This document shows, one piece after another, positions 17,753 to 22,226 of a stretch of DNA of 32,000 nucleotides. Position numbers and translations under genes: made by a program. This stretch comes from Synechocystis sp. PCC 6803 substr. PCC-P (GTDB lineage: Bacteria > Cyanobacteriota > Cyanobacteriia > Cyanobacteriales > Microcystaceae): positions 1,560,001-1,592,000 of the forward strand of contig NC_017039.1 of the NCBI RefSeq assembly GCF_000284455.1. Reading direction: 5' to 3'. The notes under the pieces were generated by a model. The model had not been told where the DNA came from. It searched no databases and worked only from the letters and a program-made list of their open reading frames with translations. Each line of letters opens with the position of its first letter. The stretch's first letter is position 1.

Positions 17753-18271
17753 TTAATATTCCACCAGGGAAATAATTGGTAAATCCGGTAAACATTGACG
17801 GCCATTGAGGGCCGCAAGCTCAATGATAAAAGCAAAACCTAACACCTCACAGCCAAGCTTAGTTAACAATTCAGCAGTGGCCTTGGCGGTTCCCCCCGTA
17901 GCGATTAAGTCGTCCACAATTAACACCCGATGGTGGGGAGCTACCGCATCCTGATGGATTTCTAAAGAGTCTTTACCGTACTCTAAATCATACTCAACTC
18001 GGTGGACTGGGGCTGGTAATTTGCCTGGTTTTCGTACAGGGATAAAACCGGCATTCATTTGATAGGCAAGGGGCATGCCAAATAAAAACCCCCGGGATTC
18101 CATGCCCACCACATGGTCCGGCACAAGTTCCTGGCTTTCACATTGTTCCACCAGGGAGTCGATGGTGTAGCGCAGTCCCTCCGGACTATTGAGCAGGGTG
18201 GTTATATCCCTAAACATAATGCCTGGCTTGGGGAAGTCCGGTATATCCCGAATTAAAGCTTTTAAATCCAT
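17753..18271 (-). CDS. apt: Adenine phosphoribosyltransferase
   Basis: [19 protein letters not shown] and the PRPP loop [14 protein letters not shown]; 172 aa. Confidence 0.95.
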
Positions 18272-18484
18272 AATGCGATGGTTTAAGGTCGTTACGGCAA
18301 CAGGTTCAGGCTACAGTGTACCTTTAACTGATGATTAGCGATAAATTCCCAACTCTACGGATAGGTGAGCGGTGGGGTACAGGGGAATTCTCTACAAGCA
18401 TTATGCTGTGACGTTGCTAGATATCAGTAAACGTGTTTATCTCAACCACCCTTAATGAAGTTATTTCCCCTCCATTTACTGATG

Positions 18485-18520
18485 CCCTTACACTTGCAAT
18501 AGGCTGTAAGGGTTTGTTCT
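18485..18520 (+). terminator. Terminator-like hairpin (8-bp stem plus T-tract) with no plus-strand gene to terminate
   Basis: CCCTTACA (18485..18492) pairs with TGTAAGGG (18505..18512) over a 12-nt loop and is followed by TTTGTTCT. Its 3' arm overlaps the left direct repeat of the islet. Confidence 0.35.
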
Positions 18521-18527
18521 ACGGAAA
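18510..18527. repeat. Left direct repeat flanking the AT-rich islet
   Basis: GGGTTTGTTCTACGGAAA; compare 19939..19954, GGGTTTGTTACGGAAA (identical apart from a CT indel). Confidence 0.7.
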
Positions 18528-18651
18528 TAGTGCTATCTTAAGTAAATTCTCTAGCACCATAAGTAAAAACACTATGGGGTGAAGTATTAAACGGTTTAGG
18601 TTTTGCCATAGTCTAACCAAAAACGCCGTAGTTACAATAACTAAATTAAAT

Positions 18652-19566
18652 TCATATTTTTCGTGATTCTAATATAAATTCAATTAGTTTATCTCTATCC
18701 CAAAGCTCCACTTTATTTCTGTATGCTAACTCTTTAGCATTTTCGGTATAACTATTATTAGTTACAACAATAGCAATATCAGCATCATAATATCCCTTAG
18801 CACCAAGAATTTCTTGAATAGCTTTTACACTAACAGCACTGGCACTTCTCTTTGCCTGAATAACATATTTTTTACGATCTTTCATCAAAATTAGATCAGC
18901 ACCAAAATCTTGAGTTTGTTGAGTCAAAGATCCCCTGTAGCCCATCCTAGTAAAATGCGTTAGTAATACTTTTTCAAAATCAACTCCATCCATTTTATCA
19001 ATACTATCCATACCGGACTCAATAAGTTTTTGCTGTTCTTTGCATTCTTTTTTTAAGTCTAAAGTATCATATAAAAATATGATATGAGAATTAATATAAT
19101 TGGACGATTCTTCCCATTTTTTCATTTTATTTCTTTTTTCATTATTTTCCTCTTTCATTTCTTTACAAATTCTTGTGTCATAATAATGATCTTCTATTAA
19201 TCTTGATTGGCTATCTACTGTTTCCCAAACAGAATAAATAGTTTTTGATTGCTCAATATATTTTTCTATATGTTCTATATCTTCTTCTAAATTTTTTGTA
19301 TTTTTTCTGTCTTCACTCAAAATATTTTTGCTGACTTGATTCCATTCCTGGCTTATTCTCTCTTTTTCAAAAACTAACATTTCTCCGTATCTTTCAACAG
19401 CATCCCATATTGCTTTAGCTTCAGTATTTCTAGCTTCCCTTTTTTTCCTTTTTTCTTCTTCCTTTTTTTTATCTTCTTCATCCCAAGCATTTTTAATTTT
19501 ATTAAATCCCCAAACAAATGTAGCAGTAGCACCAGCACCTATTAACCAAGGAAGAACTAATATCAT
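18652..19566 (-). CDS. Membrane-anchored coiled-coil protein with C-terminal Mrr-type (PD-(D/E)xK) restriction-endonuclease domain
   Basis: N-terminal TM helix (MILVLPWLIGAGATATFVWGF), about 170 aa of Lys/Glu-rich predicted coiled coil, then FEKVLLTHFTRMGY...DFGADLILMKDRKKYVIQAKR...VKAIQEILGAKGYYDADIAIVVTNNSYTENAKELA. That pattern matches Mrr_cat (FE..L...GY, D.G.D, QxK, V.E, vvT...FT..A). AGAGGA lies upstream of the ATG. Confidence 0.8.
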   Translation of the reverse strand: MILVLPWLIGAGATATFVWGFNKIKNAWDEEDKKKEEEKRKKREARNTEAKAIWDAVERYGEMLVFEKERISQEWNQVSKNILSEDRKNTKNLEEDIEHIEKYIEQSKTIYSVWETVDSQSRLIEDHYYDTRICKEMKEENNEKRNKMKKWEESSNYINSHIIFLYDTLDLKKECKEQQKLIESGMDSIDKMDGVDFEKVLLTHFTRMGYRGSLTQQTQDFGADLILMKDRKKYVIQAKRSASAVSVKAIQEILGAKGYYDADIAIVVTNNSYTENAKELAYRNKVELWDRDKLIEFILESRKI

Positions 19567-19613
19567 TTACCATTTCCTCTAAACGTATAAATTTATTATG
19601 AAATTAAGGAGAG

Positions 19614-19862
19614 CTAAGCGCTACATAAGTTAATTATTCTATACACACTAGCCTGACTAATCCCCAACTCCCTTGCTACATAAGCTTTAGACCTACCATG
19701 ACGTACAAGAGTTACAACCTGTTCCGGTACACCGTCACTGATAGGTTTTCTAGCCTCATACTTCTCTTCAGCCTTAGCTACCCCTTCACGCTGACGCTCT
19801 AGCATCATCTCTCTTTCAAACTGCCCCACACCACCAAGCAAGGTAATCGTCAATCTTCCCAA
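19614..19862 (-). pseudogene. Serine recombinase (resolvase/invertase) remnant: only the C-terminal third and HTH survive
   Basis: GRLTITLLGGVGQFEREMMLERQREGVAKA...VVTLVRHGRSKAYVARELGISQASVYRIIN matches the E-helix plus HTH of Hin/Tn3-type resolvases. The roughly 100-aa catalytic N-domain (with the Ser nucleophile) is absent. The frame opens with TTG, and an in-frame TAA lies 13 codons upstream (19899..19901). Confidence 0.75.
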
Positions 19863-19959: not shown

Positions 19960-20838
19960 TTATGTAGATTTGAGCCCCCTAAATATTTTGGCTTTCAGTA
20001 AACCAGCAAAAATGCCACTGGTCAAGAACATAACAACGGAATAAATTGCAGCAGGAATGGCCATAATAGGAGCATTTAAAAGAGTTGTGGCAATGGCGAT
20101 CGCCAAAGTGCCGTTTTGGATACCCACTTCAATGGTGATAGATTTTCTTTCAGCAAGCCCTAGCCCCGCCAAGATAGCAATGCCATAACCCAGCCCCATA
20201 GTGAGAAGATTGAGCGTTACAGTTACTCCCCCCACTTGGAGGAAAAAGTCTGCCAAGTTTTCCCGCTCTTTGACTAGAATAGCAACGATAATAATACCAA
20301 GAAAAAATAGGGAAAGCCATTTAACATTTTTCTCCATTACCATGGCAATTTTAGGCAAGAAATGGTAAAAAATCATACCTAAGCTAACCGGAATAATGGT
20401 AATTACGGCAATTTGTAAAACGGTTTTGAGAAAAGGAAGTTGGAGAGCAAATTGTTCCCCCATAAAATAATTTGCCGCCAGATTAACCACCAGGGGAATG
20501 GTGATGATCGTGACCAAACTACTGATGGCAGTTAGGGTAATGGAAAGGGCCACGTTGCCTTTGAGCAAATAGGTAATTACATTGGAAGTGGAGCCACCGG
20601 GACAGGCGGCCAAAATCATTAACCCCACTGCTAACTCTGGGGACAAAGAAAACAAAGATGATAGCCCGAATCCCACCATGGGCAACATAACTAATTGGGC
20701 GATTAAACCAATTGCAACGGCTTTGGGTTCTAGCCAAATGCGATTAAAGTCTTTAATGGTAAGCCCAAGCCCCATGCCAAACATAATCAAAAAAAGAGCC
20801 AAGGGCAAGAAAATAGTTGTTAAAAAATTGGACTCCAT
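19960..20838 (-). CDS. Bile acid:Na+ symporter (BASS/SBF) family transporter
   Basis: A polytopic membrane protein with FGMGLGLTIKDF, LVMLPMVGFGL, ILAACPGGSTSNVITYL and EVGIQNGTLAI, the characteristic SBF-family motifs. Confidence 0.88.
   Translation of the reverse strand: MESNFLTTIFLPLALFLIMFGMGLGLTIKDFNRIWLEPKAVAIGLIAQLVMLPMVGFGLSSLFSLSPELAVGLMILAACPGGSTSNVITYLLKGNVALSITLTAISSLVTIITIPLVVNLAANYFMGEQFALQLPFLKTVLQIAVITIIPVSLGMIFYHFLPKIAMVMEKNVKWLSLFFLGIIIVAILVKERENLADFFLQVGGVTVTLNLLTMGLGYGIAILAGLGLAERKSITIEVGIQNGTLAIAIATTLLNAPIMAIPAAIYSVVMFLTSGIFAGLLKAKIFRGLKST
20096..20103. repeat. HIP1 octamer (first copy after the HIP1-free stretch)
   Basis: Exact GCGATCGC inside the BASS gene. Confidence 0.95.
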
Positions 20839-20918
20839 GGGAGCAAATGATAAAAATTAATTTGATTTGAAATGGAAGTGTTGAATGATATTTGAAATAA
20901 AATCAAAAACTCTTTAAA

Positions 20919-20948
20919 ATTGTAAAATGCGGGGTAAATTCTTTGCAA
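20919..20948 (-). promoter_or_regulatory. Candidate sigma70-type promoter for the BASS gene
   Basis: On the minus strand, TTGCAA (20943..20948), an 18-nt spacer, then TACAAT (20919..20924), about 80 nt upstream of the ATG. Pattern match only. Confidence 0.25.
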
Positions 20949-21233
20949 ATAAACAAAGTGAGTGTATCATAATTTTGCTAAATTGCGAAAGAGCATTTGT
21001 TTTGTCTACCTGAAAATGGCCACCCAAAATTAGACATATTTTAAGACGTATCTAAGTTTATGCACATCTGGTTAGGATTGGTCCTAGACTAGAGTCAGAT
21101 GAAAACGGCAAATGTATTGAAAAGACTTAACTTGCAGGGAGTAACGTCCCAACAGGTGTTTTATGGAGTAAATTTCCCAGCAATTTGGTAAAATTCAGCC
21201 CCGTCAAACTTTGTAACCAACTAGCTATGGCCT

Positions 21234-22226
21234 ATGACAATTAGCACCACAGATACTTCCCTAATTATTTGGCCGGCCATGGGTTGTGGCACCTGGGCTT
21301 GGGGTAACAAATTGCTCTGGGGTTACCAGCCTGCTATGAATGGAGAACTGGAACGGGTGTTTAGGGAATGTGTGGCGGCGGGAATAACTTTTTTTGACAC
21401 TGGAGATTCCTATGGCACCGGCCGACTCCAAGGACAAAGTGAAAAACTGTTGGGGCAATTTTCCCAAGCCTATGAAGGACTAAATCAAGACAAAATTTGC
21501 CTGGCCACCAAATTAGCTCCCTACCCGTGGCGACTCACTCCCCAAGCTATGGTTGGGGCCGGCATGGCTTCCCAGCAACGACTACAGCGACCAATTGATC
21601 TCGTCCAACTCCATTGGTCCACGGCCAACTATGCTCCCTGGCAAGAACAACCTTTGCTCAAGGGTTTAGTCCAACTTTGCCAACGGGGCCACGCTAAGGC
21701 TTTAGGTTTATCCAACTTCGGTCCCAAGCGTCTGCAAAAGGCCTATGACTTTTGTCAGAATGAGGGAGTTAGCATTGTCAGTCTGCAGGTGCAATATTCC
21801 TTGCTTTCCACCGATCCCGTCAGCAAATTAGGCTTGAAGGAACTCTGTGAGCAATTGGGCATCAAATTAATTGCCTATAGTCCCCTGACCCTGGGGCTGT
21901 TGACCGGTAAATATGGTCCCCAAGGACCTTTTCCTCCAGGTATCCGTGGCCTATTGTTCCGGCGACTATTACCCAAAATTCAGCCTCTTTTGGATACTCT
22001 CCAGGCGATCGCCAGGGAGCGGGAAAAAACCATGGCCCAGGTAGCCTTGAACTGGTGTATATGCCAGGGGACTATGCCCATTCCAGGGGCAAAAAACTGC
22101 CAACAGGTACAGGACAATCTGGGAGCGCTGGGTTGGCAACTGGATCGGGGGGAGATGGACGAGTTGAACAATCAGGCAGCGGCCTTACCCCAAACCATGG
22201 TGCAAAACATTTTCCAAAGTCGTTAG
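21234..22226 (+). CDS. Aldo/keto reductase family oxidoreductase
   Basis: GCGTWAWG, FFDTGDSYG, ATKLAP, LVQLHW, LGLSNF and PIPGAKN are AKR signature blocks. Confidence 0.9.
   Translation: MTISTTDTSLIIWPAMGCGTWAWGNKLLWGYQPAMNGELERVFRECVAAGITFFDTGDSYGTGRLQGQSEKLLGQFSQAYEGLNQDKICLATKLAPYPWRLTPQAMVGAGMASQQRLQRPIDLVQLHWSTANYAPWQEQPLLKGLVQLCQRGHAKALGLSNFGPKRLQKAYDFCQNEGVSIVSLQVQYSLLSTDPVSKLGLKELCEQLGIKLIAYSPLTLGLLTGKYGPQGPFPPGIRGLLFRRLLPKIQPLLDTLQAIAREREKTMAQVALNWCICQGTMPIPGAKNCQQVQDNLGALGWQLDRGEMDELNNQAAALPQTMVQNIFQSR

Follow-up and report, generated by a model that had tools for sequence, protein, structure and literature searches.

sll1429 of Synechocystis sp. PCC 6803 encodes a predicted membrane-anchored Mrr_cat nuclease with a rapidly diverging helical spacer

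Introduction

Membrane localisation, as found in Zorya, Kiwa and SNIPE, is a recognised route by which defence nucleases attain specificity (2026 review, PMC12904381). Here we analyse sll1429, a gene on the minus strand (18652..19566) of a 32,000-nucleotide (nt) stretch of the genome of Synechocystis sp. PCC 6803 substr. PCC-P (contig NC_017039.1, positions 1,560,001 to 1,592,000; this whole stretch is referred to as the window), and compare its product with the closest described systems. An initial annotation of the window had proposed that the gene encodes a transmembrane (TM) helix, a long coiled coil and an Mrr-type nuclease, i.e. a stand-alone sensor-effector in defence. Based on our analysis we favour, with a probability of about 0.55, that sll1429 is a horizontally acquired, stand-alone Mrr_cat nuclease that is held at the cytoplasmic face of the membrane and discriminates between self and non-self by its position.

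In SNIPE (formerly PD-lambda-1; Saxton et al., Nature 2026, PMC13190303) a single TM helix with its N-terminus outside is followed by DUF4041, which lies in the cytoplasm, and by a GIY-YIG nuclease. The protein resides constitutively at the membrane and cuts λ DNA during injection, and when its TM helix is removed it becomes toxic and associates with the nucleoid (PMC13190303). Its confinement to the membrane protects the host's own DNA from cleavage (PMC13190303). Defence by SNIPE is direct and non-abortive, plasmid transformation is not blocked, and within the family the nuclease is conserved while the N-terminal and middle regions vary (PMC13190303). A second single-gene system, Epona, is a cassette of the V. 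cholerae chromosomal integron that confers phage protection on E. coli; it is hardly found outside V. cholerae and is described as an Mrr_cat domain combined with a 2-TM 'holin' domain (bioRxiv 10.1101/2024.07.02.601686).

sll1429 itself has been published. The title of Gu et al. (2025, Microbiol Res 296:128123, pmid 40037110) links SLL1429, an Mrr-family nuclease, to mitomycin C and phage resistance, and the SLL1429 named there is the same gene (100% identity); three articles that cite this study (PMC13099982, PMC12915332, PMC12113986) refer to it in reference lists or in a generic statement. The defence role assigned in the initial annotation thus agrees with the phage resistance stated in that title, but it is not new, and since the gene is published and RefSeq labels its product 'MULTISPECIES: restriction endonuclease', the protein can no longer be said to lack a recognised name. 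As a discovery, sll1429 consequently carries little weight: the gene is published, the idea of a nuclease parked at the membrane was set by SNIPE, and the combination of TM helices with Mrr_cat by Epona. What we add, as far as the literature searched shows, is that anchoring with a predicted cytoplasm-facing nuclease is the default of a large Mrr_cat clade, which is common on Bacillota plasmids, and that sll1429, an unusual variant, carries a helical insertion that is confined to one lineage and diverges rapidly.

Nuclease domain

The coding sequence comprises 304 amino acids (aa) plus the stop codon (18652-18654); it starts with ATG, an AGAGGA Shine-Dalgarno-like motif is located 5' of the open reading frame (ORF), and its sequence agrees in full (100% identity) with sll1429 (BAA18002.1) from Synechocystis sp. 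PCC 6803. The ORF and its three parts described initially, i.e. TM helix, helical region and Mrr-type nuclease, are all present.

The C-terminal part (aa 184-304; 18655..19017, minus strand) is predicted to be a cytoplasmic Mrr_cat PD-(D/E)xK nuclease domain, as indicated by Pfam, Foldseek and an alignment with EcoKMrr. Pfam Mrr_cat (PF04471) matches aa 189-298 over its complete profile (1-115/115) with E = 1.2e-30 and 106.4 bits, the curated cut-off being 21 bits, and in a BLASTP comparison with Mrr from E. coli K-12 (26% identity over 114 aa, E = 4e-5) the FE, GxD and VQAKR motifs are aligned. The numbering of the catalytic residues in the initial annotation is exact (coordinates verified, all minus strand): D224 (codon 18895..18897) is the catalytic Asp within G-A-D-L, and Q237-A238-K239 (codons 18850..18858), located within I-Q-A-K-R and aligned with VQAKR of EcoKMrr, constitute the QxK variant of the (D/E)xK motif. 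E198 (codon 18973..18975) is the acidic active-site residue of helix 1. In an alignment of 64 sequences G194, F197, E198, G222, D224, Q237 and K239 are invariant, including all four residues of the putative active site (E198, D224, Q237, K239), on whose conservation the initial proposal depended; moreover, both GxD and the QxK motif are found in 120/120 homologues.

The AlphaFold2 (AF2) model has a predicted local distance difference test score (pLDDT) of >93 across the nuclease domain and shows a restriction-endonuclease-like α/β fold. A sequence search of the PDB with the whole protein gave no match at E ≤ 1. With Foldseek, the nuclease domain alone was matched in the PDB, MspJI, the Mrr-like AF1548 and AspBHI being on top with a probability of 1.00 and VC1899, Cdn1, Can2 and Hjc following at lower rank. 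Judged by domain, residues and fold, sll1429 belongs to the Mrr_cat/PD-(D/E)xK superfamily, and its residues predict a catalytically intact nuclease.

The type IV, modification-dependent restriction enzymes EcoKMrr, MspJI and AspBHI have in common with sll1429 the Mrr_cat catalytic domain with its D...QxK arrangement. These enzymes are, however, soluble proteins with an N-terminal modification reader (Mrr_N or SRA-like), whereas sll1429 contains a TM helix and a helical spacer instead. Mrr_N was not detected in aa 1-188 of sll1429 even at E ≤ 1 (E. coli Mrr: E = 3e-20), i.e. the layout is not that of classical Mrr with its winged-helix reader, just as the initial annotation had stated, and membership in the EcoKMrr type was rejected.

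Pfam also reports a match to NA-iREase1 (PF22722), a family of inactive restriction endonucleases, with E = 2e-8 and 34.6 bits versus 106.4 bits for Mrr_cat; membership was rejected as the catalytic residues are intact and invariant and Mrr_cat scores far higher. Nevertheless, this match and the truncated recombinase gene next to sll1429 (see below) could be read as signs of a decaying remnant, or of a catalytically dead domain, left by a degraded mobile element. We regard this as highly improbable in view of the scores (106 versus 35 bits), the intact and invariant catalytic residues, the complete ORF in several lineages and the strong purifying selection acting on the nuclease, for which the ratio of nonsynonymous to synonymous substitution rates (dN/dS) is 0.07-0.10.

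Membrane anchor and orientation

According to hydropathy and lysine plus arginine (K+R) counts, aa 1-22 (19501..19566, minus strand) are predicted to form a single N-terminal TM helix in N-out/C-in orientation. This segment contains no charged residue, and its Kyte-Doolittle maximum in a 19-residue window is 1.75 (aa 1-19), the usual threshold for TM helices being 1.6. The hydrophobic helix and the membrane tether proposed initially are thus well supported as predictions. In sll1429 there are 0 K+R ahead of the TM helix and 4 behind it, and the nuclease-facing flank of the last TM helix is the K+R-richer one in 89 of the 105 homologues with N-terminal TM helices (mean 3.69 versus 1.23). As K+R are enriched on the nuclease side, the positive-inside rule predicts that the nuclease domain is located on the cytoplasmic side of the membrane, and the cytoplasmic DNA-handling modules that are added to some relatives (Topo-type Zn-ribbon, HRDC, FtsK-gamma) agree with a cytoplasmic nuclease. 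By the same rule we rejected the possibility that the nuclease is periplasmic or extracellular, as in enzymes of the EndA/NucA type.

The first 11 residues, MILVLPWLIGA (19534-19566, minus strand), are identical in the three complete coding sequences of the long form, i.e. of proteins that have a long spacer like sll1429; a fourth (L005) ends at a contig edge. The motif is kept although the spacers of the same long-form proteins are only 34-76% identical. Such conservation exceeds the need of a passive anchor and hints at a specific intramembrane contact.

Helical spacer

Anchor and nuclease are connected by a helical spacer of ~160 aa (aa 23-183; 19018..19500, minus strand), for which AF2, periodicity and charge pattern suggest an ER/K-type stalk at about aa 23-50 and, C-terminal to it, three long amphipathic helices (up to aa 82, 90-127, 143-183). 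In aa 23-190, 45% of the residues are K, R, D or E, and there are 2 glycines and 0 prolines. Within aa 23-52 (KIKNAWDEEDKKKEEEKRKKREARNTEAKA) 10/26 i/i+4 pairs are oppositely charged and two residues only are hydrophobic, a pattern that is the signature of an ER/K single α-helix and predicts a stalk of this kind. The hydrophobic period of aa 23-82 is 3.6, and a 3.5-residue periodicity exceeds that of shuffled sequences only for aa 90-127 (p = 0.002).

The AF2 model of full-length sll1429, based on the alignment of 64 sequences, has a pLDDT of 93 and a predicted template modelling score (pTM) of 0.76. It contains helices at aa 11-82 (beginning inside the membrane segment), 90-127 and 143-183, followed by the canonical α/β nuclease fold, and when aa 1-190 are modelled alone identical helices are recovered (pLDDT 83). 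A Foldseek search with the spacer only yielded no significant match (best E = 0.77), the closest shapes of low root mean square deviation, likewise non-significant, being spectrin repeats and designed three-helix bundles. On the basis of these models, a charged stalk plus a compact three-helix bundle is more likely than one extended coiled coil, the packing of the bundle being deduced from pTM, the lengths of the helices and the shapes that match best, rather than from model coordinates. A long, extended dimeric coiled coil was rejected because only aa 90-127 show heptad periodicity and because the AF2 model contains three helices of ~40 residues. Thus, the coiled coil initially assigned to aa 25-190 remains valid as to its helical and charged nature, but not as to a heptad pattern over its whole length.

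On the sequence level the spacer is restricted to few proteins. Pfam reports for this region only a sub-threshold match to DUF5382_N (18-19 bits, cut-off 27), and a PHROGs search with the spacer gave no match. An exhaustive phmmer search with aa 1-190 against 1.84 billion cluster representatives returned five proteins only, all of which are members or fragments of one small cyanobacterial clade and none of which is fused to another effector. We compared sll1429 region by region with three long-form genes for which the DNA sequence was at hand. The nuclease region has 80-82% aa identity and a dN/dS of 0.07-0.10, whereas in the spacer region identity is 76%, 34% and 26% with dN/dS values of 0.31, 0.57 and 0.96, i.e. 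the spacer, on this comparison, diverges at a much higher rate than the nuclease. The spacer carries a net negative charge in all three complete long-form proteins (-5 in sll1429, -6 and -9 in the two homologues).

Relatives and distribution

Homologues were searched among 5.8 billion proteins; 200 matches were listed, and the 120 best were examined for their TM layout. Only 4 of the 200 matches listed reach the N-terminal 60% of sll1429, namely the long-form relatives P0002 (79% identity), P0003 (54%), P0004 (partial) and P0005 (truncated), the remaining ones covering the nuclease domain alone (40-58% identity, 170-245 aa). One to three TM helices precede the nuclease in 105 of the 120 best homologues (sll1429 included), and 8 further ones contain C-terminal TM helices. 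The distance from the last TM helix to the nuclease has a median of 15 aa (interquartile range 10-22 aa) in the 120 best homologues, but is ~167 aa in sll1429 and 135-167 aa across sll1429 and three long relatives.

The nuclease domains of this unnamed clade are 45-58% identical to that of sll1429 over the ~200 members listed and exhibit the motifs SGxxxIDxMxGxxFE, DFGADL, VIQAKR and VELWDR, which are common to sll1429, as are the N-terminal TM helix and the predicted cytoplasmic orientation. Members of the clade, however, often have a C-terminal Topo-type Zn-ribbon, which sll1429 lacks, and a short linker. As an N-terminal TM helix is predicted in 105/120 homologues and the median linker measures 15 aa, membrane tethering appears to be the norm in this clade and not a peculiarity of sll1429. 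The initial annotation, which had considered the tether exceptional, is to be corrected in this respect, Epona being a further precedent. What sets sll1429 apart is the linker, which is far from short and by which it is classified, from its sequence, as a very rare long-spacer variant of a membrane-anchored Mrr_cat clade.

Epona resembles sll1429 in being a single-gene system with Mrr_cat fused to a TM module, and is validated as anti-phage. It differs in that its description, on which this comparison relies, names a 2-TM holin domain but no long helical spacer, whereas sll1429 has one TM helix and a spacer. Pfam found no holin match in sll1429, and no Vibrio protein is named among the 120 best homologues, the majority of them being listed without a source name.

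With a profile built from a 9-sequence alignment of the domain, at least 446 relatives were found among GTDB species, each represented by one genome, the 80 best loci being mostly from Cyanobacteria and Bacillota. In tblastn searches domain-level homologues were found on 327 plasmid records, mainly from Bacillus, Priestia, Staphylococcus and Listeria, of which 120 are typed as conjugative and 111 as mobilizable; among phage records, 6 of 50,697 contain a homologue. The clade is thus spread over Bacillota, Cyanobacteria and many Bacillota plasmids.

Genomic context

The GC (guanine plus cytosine) content of sll1429 is 29.5%, and 18% at third codon positions (GC3), as compared to 48% for the window, in line with the foreign composition stated initially; the composition profile reaches its minimum within the gene (22-27%) in the spacer-coding part. 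sll1429 lies alone in a low-GC islet (18425..19700, 22-37% GC in 150-nt windows) between a phosphoribosyltransferase gene of the apt type (17753-18271) and the gene of an SBF-family transporter (19960-20838). A C-terminal remnant of a serine recombinase (82 aa; 19614..19862, minus strand) is located 47 nt upstream of sll1429. It matches Pfam HTH_7 (4.8e-6) and positions 109-142 of 145 only of the Resolvase profile, i.e. of the catalytic domain only the final ~34 aa are retained, together with HTH_7, the catalytic N-terminus being missing, and by tblastn it matches plasmid 'recombinase family protein' genes. The solitary position in a low-GC islet beside a resolvase remnant fits the mobile, foreign context envisaged initially. 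The remnant itself has a GC content of 42-49%, which is near the genome value and unlike the 29.5% of sll1429; it may be a trace of how the insertion came about, or else an older scar that has nothing to do with it.

Apart from short AT-rich matches of the kind expected by chance, the islet is flanked by neither direct nor inverted repeats, no plasmid counterpart of the islet DNA was found except for a 65-nt recombinase match, neither tRNA genes nor Rfam families were found in the window, and the promoter/terminator scan, which gave fewer sites than shuffled sequence, was uninformative. A second low-GC stretch (20750-20974, 26-32% GC) is situated just upstream of the start of the SBF gene (20838), in the intergenic region before an aldo/keto-reductase-like ORF at 21234.

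The genes of the long-form homologues are solitary as well. They have 30-31% GC in flanks of 39-46% GC and occupy three housekeeping sites, all different: site 1 has cation-efflux, GtrA and GFO_IDH genes as neighbours, site 2 pantoate-transferase and methyltransferase genes, and site 3 a glutamyl-tRNA reductase fragment. Lone low-GC genes at three such sites suggest that the transfer unit is therefore the single gene. Likewise, among about 45 non-redundant loci a conserved neighbour or operon partner was found only in the Microcoleus synteny group, which is inherited vertically.

Across the relatives, the proximal neighbours are richest in HTH_3, FtsK_SpoIIIE, MTES_1575, CHAP, T4SS-DNA_transf and integrase domains. 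On plasmid pNCT2_1 of Priestia megaterium (L087 5935-6573) a short TM-Mrr_cat gene overlaps the end of a DUF3991-TOPRIM gene. This context suggests that the short forms belong to the backbones of conjugative elements. A minority of the proximal neighbours are defence genes according to PADLOC (Hhe, PD-Lambda-1, ZacA, DpdF, Mokosh, SspH). The PADLOC output for the proximal and distal sets is given by family, and the control is dominated by two kinase proteins that match dozens of PD-T4-6 models, so that the two sets are not comparable and an enrichment of the clade in defence islands is unproven. Such enrichment, which the initial annotation had expected of a defence gene, is not evident: the long forms are found among housekeeping genes and the short forms mostly in plasmid or conjugative contexts.

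These contexts raise the question whether sll1429 acts primarily as a barrier to plasmid, conjugative or transforming DNA, i.e. in entry exclusion or in the competition between mobile genetic elements (MGEs), rather than against phages. The frequency of homologues on plasmids, conjugative and mobilizable ones in particular, their near absence from phage records, the Priestia gene abutting a DUF3991-TOPRIM gene, the neighbours with FtsK_SpoIIIE, T4SS-DNA_transf, CHAP, integrase and HTH_3 domains and the natural transformability of Synechocystis all argue in this direction. The context data, however, are derived from short forms and not from the long-spacer clade, SNIPE leaves plasmid transformation unblocked (PMC13190303), and phage resistance appears in the title of Gu et al. 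We thus consider a role centred on MGEs unlikely.

Spatial discrimination as a possible mechanism

The layout of sll1429 is reminiscent of SNIPE in that a single gene encodes an N-out TM helix (predicted in sll1429), an elongated cytoplasmic middle part and a C-terminal nuclease, and in that the parts show the same conservation pattern. The nucleases are different, however, GIY-YIG in SNIPE and Mrr_cat/PD-(D/E)xK in sll1429, and the middle part of SNIPE is DUF4041, which has a basic DNA-binding face, whereas the spacer of sll1429 is net acidic; DUF4041 was not detected in aa 1-188 of sll1429 at E ≤ 1. sll1429 and SNIPE are thus analogous, but not homologous, and sll1429 is not SNIPE.

Taken together, we suggest that sll1429 implements the logic of SNIPE with non-homologous parts. 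Its single N-terminal TM helix (N-out, C-in) would keep the nuclease at the inner face of the membrane and off the nucleoid, and as a DNA-reader domain is lacking, discrimination between self and non-self would most likely be spatial. The nuclease would then encounter DNA that crosses or lies at the membrane, such as phage DNA during its injection and perhaps further DNA entering the cell. The spacer, acidic and variable, may set the reach of the nuclease, mediate oligomerisation, serve as an adaptor that docks a host or phage protein, or be autoinhibitory.

The initial annotation had offered, as one model, a different mode of action, in which a nuclease parked at the membrane is set free by a membrane or phage trigger. 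Once released or activated in this way, it would break down the chromosome and kill the infected cell. Such a latent toxic or abortive effector would have the same architecture. SNIPE without its TM helix attacks the host nucleoid, so that release would indeed be lethal (PMC13190303), and Zorya and Kiwa demonstrate that defence systems are able to sense membrane perturbation (PMC12904381). In addition, the best PADLOC match of the nuclease domain is ZorD (1.1e-21, positions 932-1061/1071), followed by PDC-S02 (2.1e-12, 191-308/334). ZorD, from type I Zorya, is likewise part of a membrane-linked defence system and similar in its nuclease part, but it contains an SNF2 helicase and is encoded together with zorABC, whereas sll1429 has neither a helicase nor ZorABC partners; as the nuclease part alone of each profile is matched, membership in ZorD or PDC-S02 was rejected. 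Neither a protease site nor a partner gene nor a sensor domain was found in sll1429 or the neighbourhoods, the sequence gives no sign of a release mechanism, and SNIPE, the closest studied membrane-tethered single-gene nuclease, stays on the membrane and protects directly and non-abortively (PMC13190303). An abortive effector therefore appears unlikely to us. Of the stand-alone sensor-effector put forward initially, the defence-related, stand-alone, tethered nuclease persists as the best reading, which fits the published title, while neither the novelty nor the trigger-dependent, abortive mode is supported.

Several points weigh against spatial restriction. The mitomycin C phenotype in the title of Gu et al. 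hints at DNA repair and is not explained by it. The TM helix and its orientation in sll1429 are predictions, the long-form homologues are located outside recognisable defence islands, and the short forms are often found in conjugative or plasmid backbones, which fits MGE-centred roles equally well. Moreover, the spacer could be evolving fast because constraint on a mere linker is relaxed, and not because of an arms race, and the acidic spacer, unlike the basic DNA-binding DUF4041 of SNIPE, probably does not recruit DNA.

The first of these points leads to the idea that sll1429 is a DNA-repair or structure-specific nuclease that acts on cross-link or fork intermediates, phage resistance being a side effect. 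Mitomycin C resistance is named first in the title of Gu et al., Mrr_cat is related to archaeal Holliday-junction resolvases, and resolvases of the Hjc type are among the weaker Foldseek matches of the nuclease. A membrane enzyme tethered by a stalk would, however, be badly placed to reach the nucleoid. A recent foreign insertion of patchy distribution, with only 5 relatives of TM helix plus spacer among 1.84 billion representatives, and relatives carried by plasmids are moreover atypical of core repair, and we thus judge this role to be rather improbable.

If sll1429 indeed restricts DNA by position, nature would have provided, with the short and long forms, an experiment on how the length of the tether and the identity of the adaptor determine the specificity of a nuclease that has no reader, and the protein would bear on the engineering of Synechocystis strains that are phage-resistant or more transformable. 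More tentatively, one may speculate that sll1429 and its whole clade (at least 446 GTDB loci, 327 plasmid records) are the PD-(D/E)xK counterparts of SNIPE, discriminating by position alone and cutting DNA where it enters at the inner membrane, and that the bundle of the long form together with MILVLPWLIGA is an adaptor that docks to an entry channel of the host or to an injection protein of the phage. We regard this extension as doubtful, but if it were true, spatial discrimination would be both convergent and common, and cyanobacteria would offer a tractable example.

Further tethers and arrangements among the relatives

Other cyanobacteria have evolved long tethers of different kinds. In Microcoleus and other Oscillatoriales (L028 6897-9143 and ~20 syntenic loci, e.g. 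L032, L042, L048) proteins of ~700-780 aa end in an Mrr_cat domain of the sll1429 clade; they are composed of an N-terminus of Ala/Gly/Ser-rich repeats, an EcsC-like region (PF12787, 1.6e-7), 2 TM helices, a stretch of ~287 aa and Mrr_cat, and the neighbours on both sides are conserved in about 15-19 loci. In Moorena (L031 5300-8972; L077 8764-10967) two or three paralogues of 250-350 aa are arranged in tandem. Their N-termini, with 2 TM helices, are nearly identical and are followed by a spacer of K/S-rich repeats (68-156 aa; repeats e.g. 'GDLKRKLKEEVNNGKSSVEDRRASKSSSF') and the same Mrr_cat domain, a single copy having Q-A-K-I instead of QAKR; it looks as if the spacer lengths in these arrays were diversified by repeat expansion.

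Some members of the clade (P0033, 519 aa; P0056, 306 aa; L082 9713-10783) have a reversed or extended layout. In two of them Mrr_cat is N-terminal and is followed by an FtsK/SpoIIIE ATPase and/or FtsK-gamma and by a C-terminal TM anchor, and in one TM-Mrr_cat is followed by a C-terminal HRDC domain, i.e. a membrane anchor is combined with cytoplasmic DNA-handling modules in all three.

Finally, three viral proteins annotated as 'restriction endonuclease' (BFVD A0A2Z4QA31, A0A8S5URS9, A0A8S5QLE7; 228-330 aa), two of which are from uncultured Siphoviridae by name, can be aligned with the model of sll1429 (247-298 columns, E about 1e-11), helical N-terminal parts included. Judging from these models, some phages may carry helix plus Mrr_cat proteins of similar build.

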